A DNA stretch of 64,000 bases from an uncultured Gammaproteobacteria bacterium (GTDB lineage Bacteria > Patescibacteriota > Microgenomatia > Levybacterales > UBA12049): positions 5,663-69,662 of the forward strand of contig CAZILC010000002.1 in NCBI GenBank assembly GCA_964540055.1, in the 5' to 3' direction. Positions 21,982-41,850 of the stretch are shown piece by piece. The notes below the pieces were generated by a model, which worked only from the letters and a program-made list of their open reading frames with translations, was not told the DNA's origin and ran no database searches. Within the stretch, counting starts at the first letter, position 1, and every line of letters begins with the position of its first letter. The translations under genes were made by a program, and so were the position numbers.

Positions 21982-22517
21982 TCCACCTGAACCTTTCCTA
22001 CATCCATTAACCACCCGGCATGCTGGGCTGATTGTGTTTGTCCCCATACTTTAATTTTCTGGTTAATGAATTGAGAAAGATCAACATTGGATGAGGTGAG
22101 ATAGACATTTTGACTGTCACCGCCGGGACGAACGAGATGATATTGCCCTTCTCCATCAACACCGCCATTTTTCAAAATTCCTTCAGCGGTGTCTTTAAAT
22201 ACTTTAGGATCGCCATCTCCGAATGTTTTGCCTTTTGAGTGAGCATTGGGGTTGAGACTATTCGGCACTATACCAGCGCCTGTCTTTGCGGAAACCATTG
22301 ATGTGCCATAACCGACACCAACTCCGAGAAGAATCATTAAGACGAAAACAAAAATTACAGTTCCACCTGATATGGCTTCTTTTTTGTCTGAAAATGTTTG
22401 CATGAGAGAATCGTTTGGTGATTTAGAGTTAGATGAAGTTGTCGCAACAGGCGTTTTATGTTCTGAAACGCTCTTAACAAATGGACTCGTTGGATTTTTT
22501 GCTTTATCCATGGGCAA
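21978..22517 (-). CDS. membrane-anchored hypothetical protein, first gene of the ftsEX operon
   Basis: 179 aa. A low-complexity N-terminus is followed by one TM segment ('VIFVFVLMILLGVGVGYG') and an extracytoplasmic domain. It is translationally coupled to ftsE. Confidence 0.55.
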   Translation of the reverse strand: MPMDKAKNPTSPFVKSVSEHKTPVATTSSNSKSPNDSLMQTFSDKKEAISGGTVIFVFVLMILLGVGVGYGTSMVSAKTGAGIVPNSLNPNAHSKGKTFGDGDPKVFKDTAEGILKNGGVDGEGQYHLVRPGGDSQNVYLTSSNVDLSQFINQKIKVWGQTQSAQHAGWLMDVGKVQVE

Positions 22518-22700
22518 CTAGTCTATCTCAAACACCTGCTGTTTTTTTGATTAGAATTGACACACAAATACAAAAAACAGCGGTCTTAAACCTAAGACTA
22601 GTAAAGCATATTTATAACCATTTATCAACCCGCGAATGCTCAGCATTTTTATAATAAATCCGAAACAACATCTTTGCCCATAAGAATAACTATGGACAGT

Positions 22701-22726
22701 TGTCAAACTTAGACAACAGTTTGACA
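22701..22726. promoter_or_regulatory. perfect 8-bp inverted repeat overlapping the -35 box of orphan F (operator candidate)
   Basis: TGTCAAAC (22701-22708), 10 nt, then GTTTGACA (22719-22726). The right arm contains the TTGACA -35 hexamer. Confidence 0.35.
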
Positions 22727-22749
22727 TTAGCTTCATTTTTTGCTACTAT
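22721..22749 (+). promoter_or_regulatory. sigma70-like promoter of orphan F
   Basis: TTGACA (22721-22726), a 17-nt spacer, then TACTAT (22744-22749). The ATG is at 22776. Confidence 0.5.
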
Positions 22750-22775
22750 CTGAAGCTCAAATGTTTTAATCTAGT

Positions 22776-23678
22776 ATGATGCCTGATAGATTTACACCAC
22801 AACAAGTAAAAGGAATCAGAGAGCCTGGAATGCGAACTTTTCCGGGTGCTGGTGAGATTTTGCGTCCACCTCGAGGTACACAAGTCGTAGTACTGAATGC
22901 AGAACCTTTTAGCACAATTGGGCCTAATCTTAGCAATTCCGTGAGAGATCCCAAAGGAGATGTTATGTTTCAATGGAATACAACTTCACATTGGTTACAT
23001 CCTAATAATGCGCTAAATGTGCCTCTACAGCATCCTAGTACACAATTTCCAGAGGTGAATAAACCTGAAGTTAGTCGACGTATTGGAGGCTTAATTGGAA
23101 CTGGATCCGGCGCAATGATCTTTGATTCTGATCGTAAACCATGGATAGAGAAATATTTAGATTTTCTCAGAGGCGCTGCTGATGCACAAATTGTTTCCAA
23201 ATTTACGTGTTTTTCGGCACAAGCTTTTGCAGAAGCCATGGGTGGGGATGAAACAGTTCGGGAGAACCCTTCACAAGTAAGAAATTTCGGAGTTGGTAGA
23301 TATAATTTAACAGATAAAGGAAGAGAGCATTGGCTGCTTGAAGGATTAGATGATGGATTTTTGGCATATAGAAGTCACTTCCAAAGCATCAATCCGGATA
23401 AATTACCTCGAGGTGTCGAGGTGCTTGCAGTAGATGCTGATGATGGTTATGTTGCAGCCCTGGGTTATGGTAATATCGGAGCAATACAATTCCATACCGA
23501 TCTTTCAATGGAGGCAATGTATGGACTTGCTATAGGAAGAGAAGATGAATTATTAAATAGAGGAATAACACTCAGTGATTTTTCACAAGAATTAAAATTT
23601 TTTGAAGAAGCAGTTATGCATACTAATAATACTATCAATCATAATTTTTACCGGAGAATGTTTGATCAAGCTGCTTAG
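22776..23678 (+). CDS. divergent class I glutamine amidotransferase-like protein (orphan F)
   Basis: 300 aa. It aligns by eye along its whole length with the GATase at 35405-36121. 'GTGSGAMIFDSD' matches 'MGGPMGVYEDKE', 'KFTCFSAQAFAEAMGG' matches 'FGFCLGHQLLAYALGA', and 'GAIQFHTD' matches 'FGIQFHFE'. Confidence 0.55.
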   Translation: MMPDRFTPQQVKGIREPGMRTFPGAGEILRPPRGTQVVVLNAEPFSTIGPNLSNSVRDPKGDVMFQWNTTSHWLHPNNALNVPLQHPSTQFPEVNKPEVSRRIGGLIGTGSGAMIFDSDRKPWIEKYLDFLRGAADAQIVSKFTCFSAQAFAEAMGGDETVRENPSQVRNFGVGRYNLTDKGREHWLLEGLDDGFLAYRSHFQSINPDKLPRGVEVLAVDADDGYVAALGYGNIGAIQFHTDLSMEAMYGLAIGREDELLNRGITLSDFSQELKFFEEAVMHTNNTINHNFYRRMFDQAA

Positions 23679-23739
23679 AAAATTTCTTTCTGGTAATTAC
23701 AGACCTCTTCCTGTATAATAGCCTCACAAGCCCAACAGT

Positions 23740-24402
23740 ATGTTCAAAATTCAAAAACTCGATTTTCTAATTGCCTTTTATATTACCTGTGTCATCATCT
23801 CAGAAGTCATGGGCGCAAAAACTTTCCCTATCACAAGCATCGGTTCATTTCATCTCAATGCCACAGTCGTAATCTTCGTTTTACCATTTATCTACGCAGC
23901 AAATGACATCATCGTTGAAGTATTCGGCAAAGAACGAGCACAAAGTGTTGTCCGCTCCAGTCTTTTTATGATTTTCTTTCTGCTTCTCTTTTCCGTACTT
24001 GCAACAATTCTTCCACCAAGTGCACGGTTTGAGCAAACAAATGCTGCATACAATACCATCTTTGGCATTTCAATTAGATTCTCAGCAGCATCCCTAATCG
24101 CTTTTGCTGTCTCGGAATTTCTGGATGTGTATATTTTTGCAAAAATGCGGGCAAAATTTGGCAAAAAGAAACTGTGGCTTCGTACCAATGTCTCAAACTT
24201 TATCAGTGAATTTTTTGATACTGCAATTTTTATGACTCTGGCTTTTTATGCTCTCAATCTTCCGGTAATGGCAAATCTCAGTTTCATAGCAGGTATCGCA
24301 CTTCCCTACTGGCTTCTTCGATGTTTTATGTCGGTTATTGAAACGCCCCTTGTTTACCTTGGTGTCAAATGGCTTGGTAAAAACTCCGACAGTAAGAAAT
24401 GA
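23740..24402 (+). CDS. yhhQ: YhhQ/VUT-family transporter (queuosine-precursor transporter family)
   Basis: 220 aa with about 6 TM segments and 'FVLPFIYAANDIIVEVFG' and 'SEFLDVYIFAKMR', typical of YhhQ/DUF165. Confidence 0.82.
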   Translation: MFKIQKLDFLIAFYITCVIISEVMGAKTFPITSIGSFHLNATVVIFVLPFIYAANDIIVEVFGKERAQSVVRSSLFMIFFLLLFSVLATILPPSARFEQTNAAYNTIFGISIRFSAASLIAFAVSEFLDVYIFAKMRAKFGKKKLWLRTNVSNFISEFFDTAIFMTLAFYALNLPVMANLSFIAGIALPYWLLRCFMSVIETPLVYLGVKWLGKNSDSKK

Positions 24403-24944
24403 AAATAATTCTCATCGACGTCTCATCACTTGACGGCAAACTCACCAAATGGAAAGGCAACGATATCTATGAATGGTCATCACGTGAAGATTTTATTCAT
24501 TTCCAAAAAGTAAAAAGCGAAAACAATCTTCTCGTTATGGGATCGGGTACCTTTGATAAAGTAAAAAACATTGAGGGGGCCGGATTAAAGCCAGAAAAAG
24601 AAAGGCTGCGGGTTATTTTAACAAGCAAACCCCAACAATACCAAAAATACGTTATCCCAGGCCAAATGGAATTCAGCGATGAATCACCACGGCAACTCAT
24701 AGCGCGTCTTTCAGAACGGGGATATAAACAAATGCTTCTTGTCTCAGGAGGCAAGGTGGCGACTTCTTTTTTTAAAGAACAATTAGTCGATGAATTATGG
24801 TTGACAATTGAGCCCAAAATTTTCGGCAGCGGCGAACCATTGGTCCAAGAAGGAGCATTTGATATCAGTCTTAAACTCCTCAGTATGGAAAAGCTCAACT
24901 CGCAAGGGACTCTTCTGTTAAAATATCAAGTAATCACACAATGA
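24399..24944 (+). CDS. RibD C-terminal domain / dihydrofolate reductase-family protein
   Basis: 181 aa with 'MKIILIDVSSLDGKLT' and 'LLVMGSGTF'. It has ATGA overlaps with both neighbours. Confidence 0.78.
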   Translation: MKIILIDVSSLDGKLTKWKGNDIYEWSSREDFIHFQKVKSENNLLVMGSGTFDKVKNIEGAGLKPEKERLRVILTSKPQQYQKYVIPGQMEFSDESPRQLIARLSERGYKQMLLVSGGKVATSFFKEQLVDELWLTIEPKIFGSGEPLVQEGAFDISLKLLSMEKLNSQGTLLLKYQVITQ

Positions 24945-25690
24945 AAGTAACTGCGTATAAAACCCACAAAGTAGATGTCGGAGAAGACATTTACAAAATA
25001 CTTGATAACTATCTTCCTAAGCTTGAAGAAAATTCAGTAGTAGCTATTGCTTCAAAAATCATCGCTTTTTGCCAGAAAGATGTTGTTAAAAAAGAACCCG
25101 GTATGGAAAAAAGAGATCTCATTATCGAAGAAGCTGATTATTTTTTGGGTGATGATTATCCAAGACCGTTTGGACAAAACATCAGTATCAAAAATCATAC
25201 ACTTACAGCCAGCGCGGGAATTGATGAATCCAACGGCAATGGGTATTTCATTCTCTGGCCGAAAAATTTACAGGAGATAACAAATAACATCTGGGACTAT
25301 TTGCGTGAAAAACATAAAATTAAAAATCTGGGAGTTATTATCACAGATAGCCGTGTCGTACCAATGCGCTGGGGGGTTATAGGCATTTCGCTTTCATGGT
25401 GCGGATTTGAGCCGATTAAAGAATATGTTGGAACACCAGATATTTTTGGACGTACTATGATGGTCGAAAAAACAAGCATCATCGACAGTCTGGCAACCGC
25501 GGCAACAGTCGTGACAGGAGAGGGAGGAGAGCAGAAGCCATTGGCAGTAATTGAAGATGTGCCTTTTGTACAATTTCAAAACCGTCCACCAACTGATGAA
25601 GAAATCAAACATCTACAAATAGCCCTCAAAGACGACCTCTTCGAACCCTTGATGAGCTCGGTGAAATGGAAAAAAGGGAAGGGGAAATAA
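24941..25690 (+). CDS. F420-0:gamma-glutamyl ligase (CofE)-like protein
   Basis: 249 aa with 'SKIIAFCQ', 'AGIDESNGNGYFILWP' and 'VIITDS', the pattern of the CofE/FbiB N-domain family. Confidence 0.75.
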   Translation: MKVTAYKTHKVDVGEDIYKILDNYLPKLEENSVVAIASKIIAFCQKDVVKKEPGMEKRDLIIEEADYFLGDDYPRPFGQNISIKNHTLTASAGIDESNGNGYFILWPKNLQEITNNIWDYLREKHKIKNLGVIITDSRVVPMRWGVIGISLSWCGFEPIKEYVGTPDIFGRTMMVEKTSIIDSLATAATVVTGEGGEQKPLAVIEDVPFVQFQNRPPTDEEIKHLQIALKDDLFEPLMSSVKWKKGKGK

Positions 25691-25754
25691 CAAATAACTC
25701 TCAATTTTTACTTTTCAAACACTGAAACATTGCATCGTACATTAGTTGCTTAAC

Positions 25755-26762
25755 TTAGAGGGTTCTCAATTCTTCTTCAATAAACTGATCCAATTCACCA
25801 TTTAAAACAGCATCGGTATTACCAGTCTCAACACCAGTTCGCAAATCTTTTACCATACGATACGGATGTAAAACGTAGGATCGTATTTGGTTACCCCAAC
25901 CGGGCGTCTTGTAGCCCCCTTTTAATTTGGCTTCTTCTTTTTTCCGCTCATCATCCTTGATAGCCCATAATTTTGCTTTCAACAATTTCATGGCGAACTC
26001 TCGATTTTGCCCCTGATACCGTTGCGTCTGAGCTGTGACTACGATGCCCGTCGGCTTATGACGTATGCGAACAGCGGTTGAAACTTTATTGACATTTTGA
26101 CCGCCATGTCCTCCTGAACGAAACGCTTCAAATTCAATATCATCATCTTTTATTTCAATTTCGCCATTGTCCTCCGTCACTTCAGGCAAGACTTCAACCA
26201 TAGCAAAAGATGTTTGACGTAAGTTATCAGAATTGAAAGGAGATAAGCGAACTAATCTATGAACGCCCGCTTCATGTTTTAAATTCCCAAATGCATATTT
26301 TCCCTCAACAGCAAGCGTAATGCTTTTCAAACCCGCTTCTTCACCTGGCGTTTCATCCAAAATGTCATAACCCCAGCCTTTTTTTTCAAAATACCGAGTG
26401 TACATGCGAAAAAGCATCTCCGTCCAATCCATTGCCTCAGTCCCGCCTTGTCCTGAATGAATTGCGAAAATCGCGTTGGACTTATCATACGGAGAAGAGA
26501 AGAACATAAGTAATTCCAAACGCTTCAAGAGGCTTTCTGCTTCATCAAATTCTCCTTCTTCCACCCACAATTGTAAAAGCTCAACTTCCTCAACTTCTTT
26601 TTGAAGCGATGCCAGCTCTTTCATTTTTTCAGCGGCATTCTGATGATCATCCCAAAAATTCGCTTTCATGCTCTCAGCTTCCAAATCACGAATTCTTTTG
26701 TGCTTGTCTTCAACGCCGACCCGCTCAACTAATTTTGTTACTCGCTCTTTTATTTCTTCCAT
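25755..26762 (-). CDS. prfB: peptide chain release factor 2
   Basis: 335 aa with the 'SPF' tripeptide ('VRLSPFNS') and the GGQ motif ('[11 protein letters not shown]'). It is a single uninterrupted frame. Confidence 0.93.
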
Positions 26763-26765
26763 ACT

Positions 26766-27089
26766 TTACTTCTTTTTATCTTTAGATTCTAACACATTGT
26801 TAATTTGATCCTGAGTGAAATTCTTGATGTCATTTATATCTTTTGGAATCCGTTGAAATCTGTTGAAATAAGCCACAACATCCGACAGACTGATATGCAT
26901 TGCCTGTTCTTTTGCAGAATCAATTTGAATCCCAACATCCTGAGATATATGCCCGGCTATATCTTGTCCACGCTCTGTACTTGCTCCTTTTACTCCGACC
27001 TGCTTTTGGAGCATGCCGGAATAATTTGTGACAAGATAAATAACGACAACCAACGCCAGGACTGCAATAACATTTCGAAGATGTATCAT
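26766..27089 (-). CDS. small membrane-anchored hypothetical protein
   Basis: The start is taken at the Met at 27089, followed by the TM segment 'VIAVLALVVVIYLV'. The stop lies 3 nt upstream of the prfB start. Confidence 0.5.
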   Translation of the reverse strand: MIHLRNVIAVLALVVVIYLVTNYSGMLQKQVGVKGASTERGQDIAGHISQDVGIQIDSAKEQAMHISLSDVVAYFNRFQRIPKDINDIKNFTQDQINNVLESKDKKK

Positions 27090-27152
27090 ACTATCTAGTA
27101 TACCGCAAAACCGTATCAATAACCTTTAAGAATAAACAAATAATTATAAACC

Positions 27153-27176: not shown

Positions 27177-27908
27177 ATGCCTATAGAAACCAAACCTTTT
27201 ATAGACTTATTAGATGGTACGTATGCGGCAAATGAGGGTTTTGCTGCCAATTCTGCACCTGTGCGTGGATATCCAAGATTTGCGCCAATTGAACCTCAAC
27301 CTGATTATCCAACGGTATCAAATCCTGGAGATACCAAACTTCCGGAGATAAATAGAGGATTACTCCATGGTTTACTCTATGAAATTTTTTCTCCAGGAAA
27401 GACAGTCACTGCCGCGAATAGTACAAACCATGAAGTGGGTGTAAGATATGTGATTAGAAAACTCCGCTTAAGAACTATTGCTGAAATTGAAGAAGAATTC
27501 GCTACGTATACATCTGGAGAAAAAGGGACTTCTAAACCAGCTGCACATAAAGGTGTAATTCATCTTATTCCATCAAAAGCTGAAAATATGAGAATTGCTT
27601 TTGGCAGTCGTTTACCTGATACCATTGCATTAAGGCTACTTATTCCATCATTAAGAAACGGTGATGCATTTCAGGGTTTAAGAAAAGAGCAATCTACGCT
27701 GGGGCATTCTCTAGATGTCGCAACTGAATTAGGAATAGATACTATAGGTGACCTTAGAAGCGCCAATATTGCACGCTTACTTTTACGAACAACCAGACCG
27801 CAACAGTTAAGACAAAAACCTGTAGGTTCTTGGGCAAGGAGTTTGATATTTGCACAATATTCTATTAAAAGACCGGATTCATCCTCACCAAAAGCACATC
27901 GCACATGA
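27177..27908 (+). CDS. hypothetical protein (orphan G)
   Basis: 243-aa ORF with no TM segment. It is R/P/G-rich. I recognise no family. Confidence 0.5.
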   Translation: MPIETKPFIDLLDGTYAANEGFAANSAPVRGYPRFAPIEPQPDYPTVSNPGDTKLPEINRGLLHGLLYEIFSPGKTVTAANSTNHEVGVRYVIRKLRLRTIAEIEEEFATYTSGEKGTSKPAAHKGVIHLIPSKAENMRIAFGSRLPDTIALRLLIPSLRNGDAFQGLRKEQSTLGHSLDVATELGIDTIGDLRSANIARLLLRTTRPQQLRQKPVGSWARSLIFAQYSIKRPDSSSPKAHRT

Positions 27909-28086: not shown

Positions 28087-30225
28087 ATGAGGAAAACTCA
28101 CGCTTCCGAAATTAGAGAGAAATGCGGTGTCGTCGGTGTTTGGACCACTGACAACTATGCTCCGTATATAGCAAGGCGCGCGCTTGCAGCTTTGCAGCAC
28201 CGAGGACAGGAAAGTGCAGGCTTAAGTGTTCTCAATCTTGACGGAAAAATCTCAACCTACAAAAAAATGGGTCTTGTCCCTCATGTGCTAACCGAATCAG
28301 TAATTAAGAACTTAGGCCCAGGACATAGCGCAATCGGACAAAACCGATATGCCACCTTCGGTCATTCTCATGAGGCAAATGCACAGCCGATAGCCATGCT
28401 GAACGGCAAATTTCAGCTGAGTCTTGGACACAACGGCAATATCCCCAATGTCACCAATATCAAAAAACAATTAAGCGCAAGATTTGCAAATTCCGGCGAT
28501 ACCGAAGTGATGACAGCTTTGCTTCACAAAAAACGTAAAGATTTTACGAGCTGGGAAGAAACGCTTATCAATGTCCTCCCCGAATTTCAAGGAGCATATT
28601 CGCTAACCATTCTGACAAATGATGGCTCACTCTTTGGCGTTCGCGATCCTTTCGGCATCAGACCACTTTGTATTGGAAAATTTGAATATGGCTGGATTCT
28701 CGCCTCAGAATCCGCAGCACTTGATACGATCGGTGCCGATTTTATTCGTGAAATCAAACCGGGAGAAATAATAAAAATTGATAAAGACGGCAAAATCACA
28801 TCCTACTTTTTTGGCGAACCCAAACGCCCGAAATATTGCATGTTTGAATGTGTTTATTTTGCCCGCCCTGATAGTTTTATCAATGGCATGCGGATTCGAA
28901 AAGGCCGCGAAGCGTCAGGACATTTACTTGGAAAACGAATGAGAGAAAAAGGAATTCAACCTGAAATTGTAGTGCCCACATTTGATTCAGGTTATCCTGC
29001 TGCAAAAGGAGTTGCACATGAACTGGGAATTCCAATGGTTGATGCGATCACAACAAGTCACTATGTTGGACGAACCTTTATCCAGCCAGGACAGTCCAAT
29101 CGTATTCTAGCAGTGAATGGCAAACATAACATCGTTCCTGATGAAATCCGTGGCAAAAAAGTCGTTATTGTTGATGATTCCGCGGTCCGTCTTACTACCA
29201 GTACGGCTCTCGCGAAAAAATTCAAAGAAGCTGGAGTTAAAGAAATTTACATGGCTTTTGCAAGCCCACCCGTTGTTGATCAATGTGATCTGGGAATTGA
29301 TATGCGTGCCAAAAATGAACTACCAGCTGCGAAATTTGAAAAAGAATCGTTTGACATCATCGAACAAAACATCGCAAAACATGTCGGAGCAGATGCGGTT
29401 GTCTATCTGCCAATAGAAGAAACCACCAAAGCATTTGGTGGTAAACCGAAAGATTTCTATTGGACACCTTTTGGCGGTCCACATCCAATCCGCGGCAAAC
29501 AAGAAGACTTCCCAAAAAGAAAACATCCAATTGTTGGCAAACCAAAAATTTCGGTTTTTGTTTCAGGAGGAGGCTCAAATCTTCAGGCAATTATTGATGC
29601 AATCGAAGCAGGAGAGTTGGATGCAAAAATCGTAAGCGTTGTTTCAAACAAACCTGATGTTTACGCTCTGGAACGAGCTAAGAAACATAAAATCCCGACA
29701 TTTATCCTTCCTTATGAGGGGAAATATGCTAACAAAGAAGCAAGAAAGAAATACGAAGAGAAACTTTTAAAACATATTGCAGAGGTCAAACCAGATCTCA
29801 TCCAATTAGCAGGTTTTAATTTTATTCTGGGTGATACGTTCCTTAACTACGCACAAGAGCATCAAATTGCGGTTATTAACCAGCATCCGGCGCTTCTGAC
29901 TTCAAATAACGGCGACACGGTTGCCACATCTCACGGAATAATGCCTGTTGCGAGAGGAAAACATGTGATTCAAGATCCATTCAATCAAGGTCTGCCTGTT
30001 TCCGGCTTTAGCGTCCATCAATTATTGCCAGGCGACGGATTTGACATGGGCCCAGTCATTTTGACAGCAGAAGTTCACAGACATCCATCGGATACCGTTG
30101 AAACTTGGGAAAAAAGAGTAGCCGAAACCGAAAATCTCTTCATCCCAACAGCCGTAAAAAGAATCCTCCATGTTATGCAATCCGGAATAGACGTAAGTAA
30201 AGGCACCTTCCCATGGGGCAAATAA
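28087..30225 (+). CDS. purF: fused amidophosphoribosyltransferase / GAR formyltransferase (PurF-PurN)
   Basis: The N-terminal part has the nucleophile 'CGVVGV' and the PRPP loop 'VVIVDDSAVRLTTS'. From about aa 487 (nt 29545) it reads 'ISVFVSGGGSNLQAIIDA', 'LAGFNFIL', 'INQHPALL' and 'GFDMGPVILTAEV', which are PurN motifs. Confidence 0.9.
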   Translation: MRKTHASEIREKCGVVGVWTTDNYAPYIARRALAALQHRGQESAGLSVLNLDGKISTYKKMGLVPHVLTESVIKNLGPGHSAIGQNRYATFGHSHEANAQPIAMLNGKFQLSLGHNGNIPNVTNIKKQLSARFANSGDTEVMTALLHKKRKDFTSWEETLINVLPEFQGAYSLTILTNDGSLFGVRDPFGIRPLCIGKFEYGWILASESAALDTIGADFIREIKPGEIIKIDKDGKITSYFFGEPKRPKYCMFECVYFARPDSFINGMRIRKGREASGHLLGKRMREKGIQPEIVVPTFDSGYPAAKGVAHELGIPMVDAITTSHYVGRTFIQPGQSNRILAVNGKHNIVPDEIRGKKVVIVDDSAVRLTTSTALAKKFKEAGVKEIYMAFASPPVVDQCDLGIDMRAKNELPAAKFEKESFDIIEQNIAKHVGADAVVYLPIEETTKAFGGKPKDFYWTPFGGPHPIRGKQEDFPKRKHPIVGKPKISVFVSGGGSNLQAIIDAIEAGELDAKIVSVVSNKPDVYALERAKKHKIPTFILPYEGKYANKEARKKYEEKLLKHIAEVKPDLIQLAGFNFILGDTFLNYAQEHQIAVINQHPALLTSNNGDTVATSHGIMPVARGKHVIQDPFNQGLPVSGFSVHQLLPGDGFDMGPVILTAEVHRHPSDTVETWEKRVAETENLFIPTAVKRILHVMQSGIDVSKGTFPWGK

Positions 30226-35404: not shown

Positions 35405-36121
35405 ATGAAATTTCTAGTTTTCCAACATGTACCTCATGAAAAAGTTGGCCTTATAGGTGATTTTGCAAAAAAACATACAATTGAGCTTGAAATTATTGAA
35501 TTATGGAAACCATATACAATCCCGTCCGTATTAAATTACGACGCTCTTATAATTATGGGCGGACCGATGGGTGTTTATGAAGATAAGGAAACATTTCCTT
35601 CCAAAGTAGACGAAATTAAGGCTATTAAAGAAGGTTTGGGAAAAATCCCAATGTTTGGTTTTTGCCTGGGTCATCAACTGCTAGCCTATGCTTTAGGAGC
35701 TGATGTACATCCGAATCTCAAAAATAATAAAAAATTAAAAGAAATCGGTTATTATACTATAGAGCTTACACCTGAAGGCAAAAAGAGTCCTCTCTTTAAA
35801 GGATTTACCTCACCGATTGAAGTTTTTCAGTGGCATGGAGATGTTTGCGAATTACCAAAGGATGCAACGCTTCTTGCAAGTTCGCCATTATGTACTACCC
35901 AAGCATTTTCTTATAAAAATGTATTTGGAATTCAATTTCATTTCGAAATCACCACGGAAATGATAGAAAATCTAATAGAAATAGATAGGACGTGGACTCA
36001 TAGTGATTTTGACCTGGATGAAAAAGAACTATTACAAAAAGCAAAGAAAAATGAAAAATTAATGAGTGAACAATCAGATAGGCTTTTAGAAAATTTTGTG
36101 TCACTAATTTCCAAATCTTAG
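35405..36121 (+). CDS. class I glutamine amidotransferase (GuaA-N-like, stand-alone)
   Basis: 238 aa with 'FGFCLGHQLL' and 'GIQFHFE'. No synthetase domain is attached. Confidence 0.8.
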   Translation: MKFLVFQHVPHEKVGLIGDFAKKHTIELEIIELWKPYTIPSVLNYDALIIMGGPMGVYEDKETFPSKVDEIKAIKEGLGKIPMFGFCLGHQLLAYALGADVHPNLKNNKKLKEIGYYTIELTPEGKKSPLFKGFTSPIEVFQWHGDVCELPKDATLLASSPLCTTQAFSYKNVFGIQFHFEITTEMIENLIEIDRTWTHSDFDLDEKELLQKAKKNEKLMSEQSDRLLENFVSLISKS

Positions 36122-36169: not shown

Positions 36170-37729
36170 ATGAGTAAAAAATACGCGCTCATTAGTGTAT
36201 CCGATAAAACAGCCCTTGTTCCTTTCGCGAAGAACATCCTCAAAGCAGGCTACGAAATTATCACCACAGGCGGCACGGCAAAAATTTTACAAGAAGCAAA
36301 ACTCAAATTCACACCCATTCAAGAAATTACCGGCAATCCGGAGAGTTTTGATGGCCGGATGAAAACGATTAGCTTTCAGATCGAATCCGCACTCCTCTAT
36401 GACCGCTCAAACCCCAAACATATAGCAGAAGCCAAGAAACTCAAAATCCCACAAATTGACATAGTCGTCTGCAATCTCTATCCCTTTGAAAAAACAGTTG
36501 CCGACAAAAAAGTGAAATTCAAAGATGCAATTGAAAATATCGATGTTGGCGGCCCGACAATGATTCGCGCAGCAGCAAAGAATAGTCTAATCGTTGTTGT
36601 AGACCCGAACGATTACGATGAAGTTTCAAAAGCTCTAAGCTCTCCTAATTTCCCCGATCCCATCAAACGCAGACTCCAATCCAAAGCTTTTGACCATCTC
36701 ACCTTTTACGACAGTCAAATCGCTTGGTATTTCAGATCACAATTGAAAGAAACTACTTTTCCTCAAGAAATCACTATTCCAGGACGTAAACTCATCGATC
36801 TTCGCTACGGAGAAAATCCTCATCAACAAGGAGCAGTTTATACCCGACCAAACGTACAAACCCCCTTTAACCAACTGACCAAACATTGGGGAAGGGATCT
36901 ATCACTTATCAATATCACAGATATCAATGCAGGACTAGATTCCGTCAGACTCTTCAAAGAACCTGCAGCTGTTGTCATCAAACATAACAACCCCTGTGGA
37001 ATTGCACTTGGGAAAAATGCAGCGGAGGCTCTTACCCGTGCAATCGAAGGTGATCCGGAGTCGGCGTTTGGTGGCATAGTTGTTCTGAACAAACCAATGG
37101 ATATGAAAGCTGCTAAAGTAATCAGTGGATTCAAAGATGCCACACGAGGTAATATGGATATCATTGCTGTGCCTGCTATCAAACCCGACGCGCTCGAATT
37201 CCTGCAAAAAGTCAGAAAATCAATGGGAATTTATTCTTTTGGTGAGATTCCAAATGCCATGGATGACTGGAATATCAAATCAATCGATGGCGGATTTGTT
37301 CTCCAGACAGCCGATGTGGACATCGACGATTCATTTAAACAATGGCAATTTGTTACCAAGAAAAAGCCAACAAAACAGCAACTTGAGCAAATGCAGATCG
37401 GCTGGAAATTTATTACCAAAATTAAATCCAATACAATTCTCGTCATGGACCCAACAATTCCGATGACAAGAGGTATTGGATCAGGGCAAACTTCCCGCAT
37501 CAGATCGTCAAGAATTGCGATTGAGCAAGCTGGTAAATTCAACAAAAACGGTATTCTTGTGAGTGACAGCTTTTTCCCGTTCCCCGATACTATTGAATTA
37601 GCAGCCAAAAACGGCATCGCTGCAATAGTTCAGCAAGGCGGCTCAATAAATGATAAACTTTCAATAGAAGCTGCCGATAAAGCCGGCATTCCGATGGTAT
37701 TCACCGGAAGACGAGCTTTTTGGCATTAA
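36170..37729 (+). CDS. purH: bifunctional AICAR transformylase / IMP cyclohydrolase
   Basis: 519 aa with the N-terminal MGS-like 'ALISVSDKT' and the C-terminus 'TGRRAFWH'. Confidence 0.93.
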   Translation: MSKKYALISVSDKTALVPFAKNILKAGYEIITTGGTAKILQEAKLKFTPIQEITGNPESFDGRMKTISFQIESALLYDRSNPKHIAEAKKLKIPQIDIVVCNLYPFEKTVADKKVKFKDAIENIDVGGPTMIRAAAKNSLIVVVDPNDYDEVSKALSSPNFPDPIKRRLQSKAFDHLTFYDSQIAWYFRSQLKETTFPQEITIPGRKLIDLRYGENPHQQGAVYTRPNVQTPFNQLTKHWGRDLSLINITDINAGLDSVRLFKEPAAVVIKHNNPCGIALGKNAAEALTRAIEGDPESAFGGIVVLNKPMDMKAAKVISGFKDATRGNMDIIAVPAIKPDALEFLQKVRKSMGIYSFGEIPNAMDDWNIKSIDGGFVLQTADVDIDDSFKQWQFVTKKKPTKQQLEQMQIGWKFITKIKSNTILVMDPTIPMTRGIGSGQTSRIRSSRIAIEQAGKFNKNGILVSDSFFPFPDTIELAAKNGIAAIVQQGGSINDKLSIEAADKAGIPMVFTGRRAFWH

Positions 37730-40875: not shown

Positions 40876-41850
40876 ATGATTCAATCCAAAACAATTATCG
40901 CCGCACTGCCCAACTCACTCGAAACTATTGATCTCCCACAACTTGGAAAGAAATACCAGGGCAAAGTCCGTGATTTTTATATTCTCAAAGACAAGCGAGT
41001 AACCATCACCACCGATAGGCAATCTGCTTTTGATGTCATTCTTGGTAATATTCCCTTCAAAGGCGCAGTGCTTAATCAACTCGCAGCATTCTGGTTTGAA
41101 AAAACAAAGAACATTGTCCCAAATCATCTTATCTCAGTACCCGACCCAAATGTATTGGTTTCAAAAAACTGTAAACCGATTCCGGTTGAGATGGTCGTTC
41201 GCGGCTATCTTTCGGGAGTGACCAAAACATCAGTTTGGTATTCATACGAAAAAGGAGAACGGACCATCTACGGAATGCAATTTCCTGATGGTATGAAAAA
41301 AAATCAAAAACTCCCAACGCCGATTATCACACCAACAACACACCCTGAAGCCGGAAGCAATTTACATGATGAACGTCTTACGCGAGATGAGATTATAAAA
41401 AGGAAAATCGTTGAAAAAAAACTGTATGAGCAGATGGAAAAAGTGGCTCTCGAACTTTTTTCTTTTGGGCAAAAATGGTGCGAAGCACATGGACTAATTC
41501 TCGTTGACACCAAATATGAATTTGGCCTCTATGATGGAAAACTTATGCTAATGGATGAAATTCACACACCCGATAGTTCACGTTTTTGGATAGAAAAAAC
41601 ATACAAAGATAGACTCAAACGCGGTCTCGAACCGGAAAATTTTGACAAAGAATTTTTAAGACTTTGGTATGCCAAACGCGGCTACACTGGTGACGGCAAG
41701 CCCCCAAAAATGACTAAAGAATTGGCAGTTGAACTCTCAAAACGCTATATCCAAACCTATGAAATGCTCAGTGGAAAAACGTTTAAACCTTTTCCCTATC
41801 CTATTGAAGATAGGATCAAACAGAACCTCAAAAAATCGGGTATACTCTAA
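40876..41850 (+). CDS. purC: SAICAR synthase
   Basis: 324 aa with 'GKVRDFY' and 'LILVDTKYEFG'. Confidence 0.9.
   Translation: MIQSKTIIAALPNSLETIDLPQLGKKYQGKVRDFYILKDKRVTITTDRQSAFDVILGNIPFKGAVLNQLAAFWFEKTKNIVPNHLISVPDPNVLVSKNCKPIPVEMVVRGYLSGVTKTSVWYSYEKGERTIYGMQFPDGMKKNQKLPTPIITPTTHPEAGSNLHDERLTRDEIIKRKIVEKKLYEQMEKVALELFSFGQKWCEAHGLILVDTKYEFGLYDGKLMLMDEIHTPDSSRFWIEKTYKDRLKRGLEPENFDKEFLRLWYAKRGYTGDGKPPKMTKELAVELSKRYIQTYEMLSGKTFKPFPYPIEDRIKQNLKKSGIL

Follow-up and report, generated by a model that had tools for sequence, protein, structure and literature searches.

FolC2 is a known non-orthologous replacement for FolC, and its Chlamydia representative, CT611 (COG1478/CofE family), complemented an Escherichia coli folC mutant and sits in a chlamydial folate cluster (PMC1971073, PMC4161248). 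That cluster, folB-folKP-folA-folC2-ct610, serves de novo synthesis and includes no transporter. An operon that pairs a transporter with a folylpolyglutamate synthase (FPGS) is known in the Firmicutes as folT-folC, for example orf2/folT-folC of Streptococcus suis, where a small membrane protein for folate binding and transport is co-transcribed with the glutamylating enzyme (PMC4232619; FolT, PMC4525288). FolT itself is an energy-coupling factor (ECF) S-component (PF12822) and needs an ECF module. Described here is a three-gene locus on a 64,000-nucleotide stretch, hereafter the window, of contig CAZILC010000002.1 (positions 5,663 to 69,662, assembly GCA_964540055.1) from a small, uncultured soil bacterium. 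The locus encodes a transporter, a dihydrofolate reductase (DHFR) and a FolC2-type ligase, and probably constitutes a folate salvage operon that imports, reduces and glutamylates folate in an organism apparently unable to make it.

The transporter, gene 1, belongs to the YhhQ/QPTR family, whose only known substrates are queuosine precursors and which includes E. coli YhhQ and Chlamydia trachomatis CT140 (PMC5372724, PMC11130926), and shares with these the Vut_1 domain (PF02592), a similar length and a set of invariant residues that includes K27, D56, E60, G63, R148 and D160. Folate is not mentioned in the literature searched on this family (PMC5372724, PMC11130926). The likeness to the folT-folC operons lies in the combination of a small membrane protein with a glutamylating enzyme, with co-transcription presumed for the window. 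In contrast to FolT, the window transporter is a Vut_1/YhhQ protein, unrelated to the ECF S-components. Vut_1 is its only Pfam match (133.6 bits); it matches neither FolT (PF12822) nor the BT1/FBT folate transporters (PF03092), and neither of these families has a match anywhere in the genome. Further, FolC2 takes the place of FolC as the ligase, and the gene for a DHFR separates transporter from ligase. With the Chlamydia cluster the locus has in common a CofE-family ligase in place of FolC and an adjoining DHFR gene in one operon, and the window ligase is 46% identical to a homologue from a Chlamydiae metagenome-assembled genome (L090). Its differences are that searches returned neither folK nor folP, that its DHFR is Thermotoga-type and that the operon is headed by the gene for a membrane transporter. 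The elements of the locus, in positions of the window, are as follows.

23714-23719, + strand: TATAAT, a -10-like box, read directly, in the 61-bp gap 5' of the operon
23740-24402, + strand: gene 1, YhhQ/QPTR (Vut_1) family transporter, open reading frame (ORF) of 220 amino acids
24399-24944, + strand: gene 2, Thermotoga-type dihydrofolate reductase, ORF of 181 amino acids
24941-25690, + strand: gene 3, FolC2-type (CofE-family, COG1478) ligase, ORF of 249 amino acids

The three ORFs on one strand and the two ATGA overlaps that join them, at 24399-24402 and 24941-24944, were seen as an earlier, sequence-only reading of the window had described them, and 4-nt overlaps between the triad genes were found again in the related contigs L149 and L150. 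This arrangement suggests that the three proteins are made together. The families given in that reading, YhhQ/Vut_1, RibD_C and CofE-like, were likewise borne out by Pfam and NCBIfam scores, and two of them can be refined: the CofE-like ligase is of the known FolC2 type, and the RibD_C protein, in addition to sharing the DHFR fold, is specifically a Thermotoga-type DHFR. At least 11 other species or contigs also keep the triad together in this gene order (L046, L064, L067, L070, L107, L112, L131, L134, L148, L149 and L150); L148-L150 are metagenome contigs reached via transporter homologues. Shorter forms exist as well, namely transporter-FolC2 and DHFR-FolC2.

In the proposed mechanism, which draws on family and fold assignments, gaps in the folate pathway and patterns of neighbourhood and phylogeny, gene 1 would import an oxidised or partly reduced folate monoglutamate, and the Thermotoga-type DHFR would reduce it to tetrahydrofolate. 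FolC2 would then add gamma-linked glutamates, thereby trapping the cofactor in the cell, and this polyglutamylation would suit it to thymidylate synthase, serine hydroxymethyltransferase, FolD, PurN and PurH. The exact substrate is not readable from the sequence and may be folic acid, dihydrofolate, folinate or even pteroate. The earlier proposal was that a pterin or a folate-like cofactor is imported, reduced and polyglutamylated. Its folate version is largely supported, whereas the looser pterin alternative is disfavoured, as the analysis turned up nothing able to link a pterin with para-aminobenzoate.

The host belongs to the Patescibacteria and is Microgenomatia/Levybacteria-like; the relatives found via the ligase in an eight-sequence alignment are Levybacteria, Gottesmanbacteria and Roizmanbacteria, all members of the Patescibacteria. 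Its assembly comprises 1.58 Mb in 62 contigs, with 38% GC, and is 82.6% complete. Whole-genome family searches of this assembly returned no folP, folK or folE, and no folC either, the best match to TIGR01499 (36.7 bits) being Mur ligases. The statement that the window holds neither folC nor folA stands, and a canonical folA lies elsewhere, on contig C52. The genome nevertheless encodes users of folate, namely thyA-folA-glyA on contig C52, folD, purN and purH. The organism therefore needs tetrahydrofolate and, as far as the incomplete assembly shows, is unable to make it.

Gene 3 is matched over its full length by F420_ligase (PF01996; residues 8-205, 101.9 bits), and among the NCBIfam models its highest score, 287.3 bits, is with TIGR04132 ('putative folate metabolism gamma-glutamate ligase'), compared with 95-101 bits for the CofE models. 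Among 401 Patescibacteria genomes, FolC2 is found in 58 and canonical FolC in 68, and both occur together in one genome only. In the closest relative, G106, a member of the same family, FolC2 lies between folA and thyA (L007). Across 80 further loci, each from a GTDB species, folA and thyA flank the ligase gene in 10, folA adjoins it in two and glyA in two, while thyA-folA-glyA stands within 5-8 kb of it in five; a DHFR-like gene adjoins FolC2 in at least 13 loci. Owing to these folA, thyA and glyA neighbourhoods, the Patescibacteria orthologues of FolC2 are firmly tied to folate despite scores below the model's cut-off, and gene 3 is a candidate folylpolyglutamate synthase of the FolC2 type. 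FolC2 homologues longer than 437 amino acids, as expected of transporter-ligase fusions, numbered none at E up to 1e-10, a result that is weak evidence.

Gene 2 passes the Pfam model RibD_C (PF01872) at 66 bits and falls short of the gathering score of DHFR_1 (19.3 against a cut-off of 25 bits). DHFR_1 is passed, at 47-60 bits, by its orthologues from G284, G083 and G293, and those in L148 and L149 also carry DHFR_1 matches. In the PDB, the sequence of gene 2 is best matched, over its full length, by Thermotoga maritima DHFR (1CZ3/1D1G; 95 bits, E 3.9e-26), with the RibD and Rib7 pyrimidine reductases far behind. An AlphaFold model built on 14 orthologues reached a predicted local distance difference test (pLDDT) score of 89.8, and its top Foldseek match is again 1CZ3, with template modelling (TM) scores of 0.83/0.91, a root-mean-square deviation of 2.1 Å and 36% identity. 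Residues E30, D31, G48, T51 and G117 are invariant in the 14 orthologues, and E30-D31 aligns with the E-D of 'SSFEDRKNF' in the T. maritima enzyme, so that the conserved acidic residue of the W-S-S-x-E-D motif is shared along with the full-length identity and the fold. The Arg of the 'MGR' NADPH motif, by contrast, is replaced by Ser in the window protein (VMGSGTF). By family and modelled fold, gene 2 is a Thermotoga-type dihydrofolate reductase, for which the corresponding activity is predicted. In the complete genomes G284, G083 and G293, DHFR_1 is matched by nothing but the orthologue next to FolC2; because there is no other match, this orthologue must, as judged from DHFR_1, be the DHFR of those organisms. 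Two further genomes, G163 and G242, carry a transporter-FolC2 pair (L018, L011) with no DHFR_1 match at 98-100% completeness; thyX or the import of reduced folate are possibilities for folate reduction there.

The evidence on the transporter comes chiefly from a maximum-likelihood tree of every YhhQ copy, 57 in total, that a search of the 401 Patescibacteria genomes with the gene 1 protein yielded; the genes flanking each copy were fetched as well. Gene 1 falls in a clade, here termed clade F, of 19 of the 57 copies (support 97/88), which is separate from the queuosine transporters of the YhhQ/QPTR family, is never found beside tgt or queF (0/19) and usually stands beside a ligase gene (FolC2 in nine of the 19, canonical FolC in two), with glyA adjoining in one more (G060). 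Conversely, all eight YhhQ copies that are linked to tgt or queF lie outside clade F. When the folate label is mapped onto the tree, three changes suffice, compared with a mean of 6.8 for shuffled labels, and none of 500 shuffles was as low.

The two exceptions in ligase type are informative, as in genomes G281 and G007 a canonical FolC (TIGR01499, 291 and 293 bits) lies directly 3' of the clade-F transporter. Because this unrelated enzyme replaces FolC2 beside the same transporter, what is conserved would be the function of glutamylating whatever was imported and not one particular gene, and the swap is the strongest single argument for a folate role. FolC or FolC2 is encoded in 17 of the 19 clade-F genomes, against 125 of the 401 overall, and 17 of the 19 have no folP match, although these proportions are descriptive only, since related genomes are not independent. 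At the residue level, position 129 is Asp in 22 of 22 clade-F sequences and Asn in 10 of 10 sequences of the queuosine-type (Q) clade, and this single Asp/Asn switch (D129) may mark a change in specificity; other differences between the clades are F108/L, F122/Y and S156/G. Taken with its neighbours, gene 1 is a candidate folate importer.

Further members of the tree merit description. A third YhhQ clade of seven copies (support 100/100) includes two that adjoin tgt and one directly downstream of canonical FolC (L158, L165, L168); the copy at L158 corresponds to G041:C2:103127-105061, in a genome that also has a clade-F copy elsewhere. The clade-F transporters of G229 and G327 (L137, L138) are 53-54% identical to gene 1, in genomes without FolC or a strong FolC2, and G327 has folP; their family, f15, shows weak CofE-like matches only (E 1e-22 to 1e-28).

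A control within the same genome is provided by a second YhhQ paralog on contig C13, which is 29% identical to gene 1. There, at C13:19043-21545 (L001/L002), tgt on the minus strand diverges from a Q-type yhhQ that is followed by queF, which is a classical preQ0 salvage module. The earlier reading had counted tgt-dependent queuosine salvage, alongside a complete folate pathway, as a point against itself. Such salvage does exist here, but tgt has a YhhQ paralog of its own beside it together with queF; gene 1 would thereby be freed for another role, and the folate idea is not refuted by it. No queA or queC was found in the 82.6%-complete genome, and the preQ0 salvage of C13 may end at preQ1-tRNA, an end point reported for Bartonella (PMC10723273). 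The TGT ORF itself (C13:19043-20359, minus strand, 439 amino acids) aligns to the TGT model of Pfam as two segments (model positions 3-99 and 93-354), as do its counterparts in G256, G284, G312 and G060, and the split match implies a putative insertion of some tens of residues.

Several results weigh against the folate reading. Some of those that concern the transporter speak for an ordinary importer of preQ0, preQ1 or queuine that came to stand beside DHFR and FolC2 by accident or through loose co-regulation, such that only the two enzymes would be folate-related. Gene 1 passes TIGR00697, 'queuosine precursor transporter' (120.4 bits against a cut-off of 50.95), and its close homologues publicly carry this name; tgt occurs in 18 of the 20 clade-F genomes checked, about half of which are without a second YhhQ copy, and a queuosine or dual role of gene 1 is accordingly possible. 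Substrate range, moreover, varies within the YhhQ/QPTR family (PMC11130926). Seven of the 19 clade-F members have no folate gene nearby, and the match of clade to context is imperfect, in that copies from G397 (Q clade) and G041 (third clade) adjoin FolC2 or FolC. Set against a queuosine importer are the C13 module, which already supplies this genome with a paralog for that purpose, and the neighbourhoods of clade F, where 12 of the 19 copies stand beside FolC2, FolC or glyA, the ligase type being swapped, and none beside tgt or queF. Two clade-F genomes, G169 (100% complete) and G090 (96% complete), have no tgt match at all. On NF008406, the equivalog model for E. coli YhhQ, gene 1 reaches 68.5 bits where the cut-off is 252, and it has neither tgt, queF nor a preQ1 riboswitch in the window or upstream; no Rfam family was matched at E up to 1 within positions 22500-26000, and at gathering score Rfam returned tRNAs only, with no preQ1 riboswitch, in 15 related loci. 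On this evidence a queuosine importer is unlikely. Separately, about 100 genomes have FolC or FolC2 but no folP, and only 17 of these apparent salvagers carry a clade-F transporter, so that clade F cannot account for folate import across the phylum in general; other importers must exist.

Points of the same kind concern the enzymes and the genome. In an assembly that is 82.6% complete, a gene not found does not equal a gene absent. Unlike the T. maritima enzyme, gene 2 sits in a salvage operon as a second DHFR besides the canonical FolA of contig C52, and the need for it is unexplained; one possibility is that it is adapted to the form of folate that is imported. Gene 3 scores below the curated cut-off of TIGR04132 (350 bits), which is reached by none of the Patescibacteria homologues in the 401 genomes. 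The Pfam names F420_ligase and RibD_C, and the PDB sequence matches of the ligase to CofE structures (E 1e-11), could be taken to mean that the locus serves another glutamylated cofactor, such as an F420-like deazaflavin or another pterin, with a true CofE and a RibD-type pyrimidine or pterin reductase. This is very improbable, given that no cofD was found in a whole-genome search, that the ligase gains about 190 bits more from the folate-type model than from the CofE models and has orthologues embedded among thyA, folA and glyA, and that the reductase finds its best match in a bona fide DHFR, with RibD and Rib7 well behind. Closer to a folate role is the salvage of a folate precursor or breakdown product, such as dihydropteroate or pteroate, to which FolC2 would add the first glutamate, as a dihydrofolate synthase, before or after reduction. 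The Chlamydia FolC2 acts in a de novo pathway in which a first glutamate is needed and complemented the E. coli folC mutant (PMC1971073), a DHFR in the operon fits a substrate at the dihydro level, and G169 carries the triad together with folP. Most clade-F genomes lack a folP match, however, and the ligase that takes over from FolC2 in this context is canonical FolC, which in salvagers is usually an FPGS. Free pteroates are not known to be a frequent form of the vitamin in the environment. Genomics alone cannot separate this possibility from folate import; it is judged improbable, marginally more so than a queuosine importer. The salvage of folate proper through import, reduction and glutamylation accordingly stays the preferred reading of the three genes.

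Turning to the flanks of the operon, the TATAAT reported at 23714-23719 was confirmed by direct reading. It lies 21 nt upstream of the operon, and the leader it implies is very short, the ATG being at 23740. The hexamer is no commoner than chance would have it in this AT-rich window, with 60 occurrences against 62.8 expected, and no good -35 element was found upstream of this copy; in the orthologous loci L070 and L046 an exact TATAAT precedes the start of yhhQ by a similar distance, some 20-25 nt. Its assignment as the -10 box of a promoter is reasonable but unproven. A leader peptide (MLITKNITTWSGF...) found no match in any frame of the genome with up to four substitutions allowed, and one located 5' of yhhQ is implausible because the 61-bp upstream gap is too small. 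No terminator-like site was seen after position 25690, where the downstream fold is no better than that of shuffled sequences (z -0.36). The stretch is present in soil-metagenome DNA runs only, with no RNA run listed for it. For the transporter protein, no PDB sequence match was obtained at E up to 1.

Immediately 5' of the operon, at 22776-23678 on the plus strand, lies a gene for a 300-residue protein resembling the class-I glutamine amidotransferases (GATases), in which the Cys (FTCFS) and His (QFHTD) are kept. It was considered as a fourth member of the operon and rejected, as relatives do not keep it 5' of the triad. In L150, FolC2 is followed by a different GATase/Peptidase_C26-like gene, which has no detectable kinship to the one at 22776-23678 (E 1.4), and another GATase lies inside the purine operon described below, at 35405-36121. 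One idea is that the 22776-23678 gene might encode a gamma-glutamyl hydrolase, that is, a folate deconjugase.

Downstream, the window contains genes for two purine steps that depend on 10-formyl-tetrahydrofolate and that stand outside the salvage operon.

28087-30225, + strand: PurF-PurN fusion, TIGR01134 (340 bits) and TIGR00639 (148 bits) in one ORF
36170-37729, + strand: PurH, the second 10-formyl-tetrahydrofolate-dependent purine step, NF002049 (544 bits)

The presence of PurN and PurH downstream had been noted from the sequence and holds, with the precision that PurN is one domain of a 712-residue fusion of PurF (amidophosphoribosyltransferase) with PurN (glycinamide ribonucleotide formyltransferase), the latter being the part that uses 10-formyl-tetrahydrofolate. 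The purine operon, which is complete, continues after the fusion with purD, purL, purQ, the GATase gene, purH, purB, purK, purE and purC, to position 41850. The fusion is conserved in the relatives L046 and L067 (about 1000 bits), where it is syntenic with the triad as in the window, and a purF-like gene lies directly 5' of the module in L107 and L096. Between the two operons, two ORFs without a family match adjoin prfB, at 26766-27119 (minus strand) and 27177-27908 (plus strand), and the position of the 117-residue ORF upstream of prfB is kept in L067, L070 and L150.

FolC2 and the Thermotoga-type DHFR are already known kinds of enzyme, and transporter-FPGS operons have their precedent in folT-folC with its unrelated transporter (PMC4232619). 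A folate role for the transporter, as suggested by its gene context, is new relative to the literature searched, and the window adds three lines of evidence to it, namely the within-genome control of tgt-yhhQ-queF, the swap of FolC2 for FolC and the tree of all copies. The clade-F members of the YhhQ/QPTR family are therefore proposed, with slightly less assurance than attaches to the salvage operon itself but still on the favourable side, as an undescribed family of bacterial folate importers and one route by which folate-auxotrophic Patescibacteria obtain vitamin B9. Databases probably misname the importer encoded by gene 1. If the proposal is true, YhhQ/QPTR proteins would gain a new substrate class, and more than 1000 database entries would bear 'queuosine precursor transporter' as a wrong name, a widespread automatic annotation that would thereby be corrected.

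The Patescibacteria, which also go by the name Candidate Phyla Radiation (CPR), make up a large and mostly uncultured share of bacterial diversity and rely on other cells for their vitamins. In a survey from 2025, about 91% of CPR genomes carried genes that use folate, but known folate transporters were not found (PMC11974145). An importer dedicated to folate and encoded alongside the enzymes that reduce and trap its substrate would, if real, fill part of this gap, and would provide a concrete nutrient to try in the cultivation of Patescibacteria.

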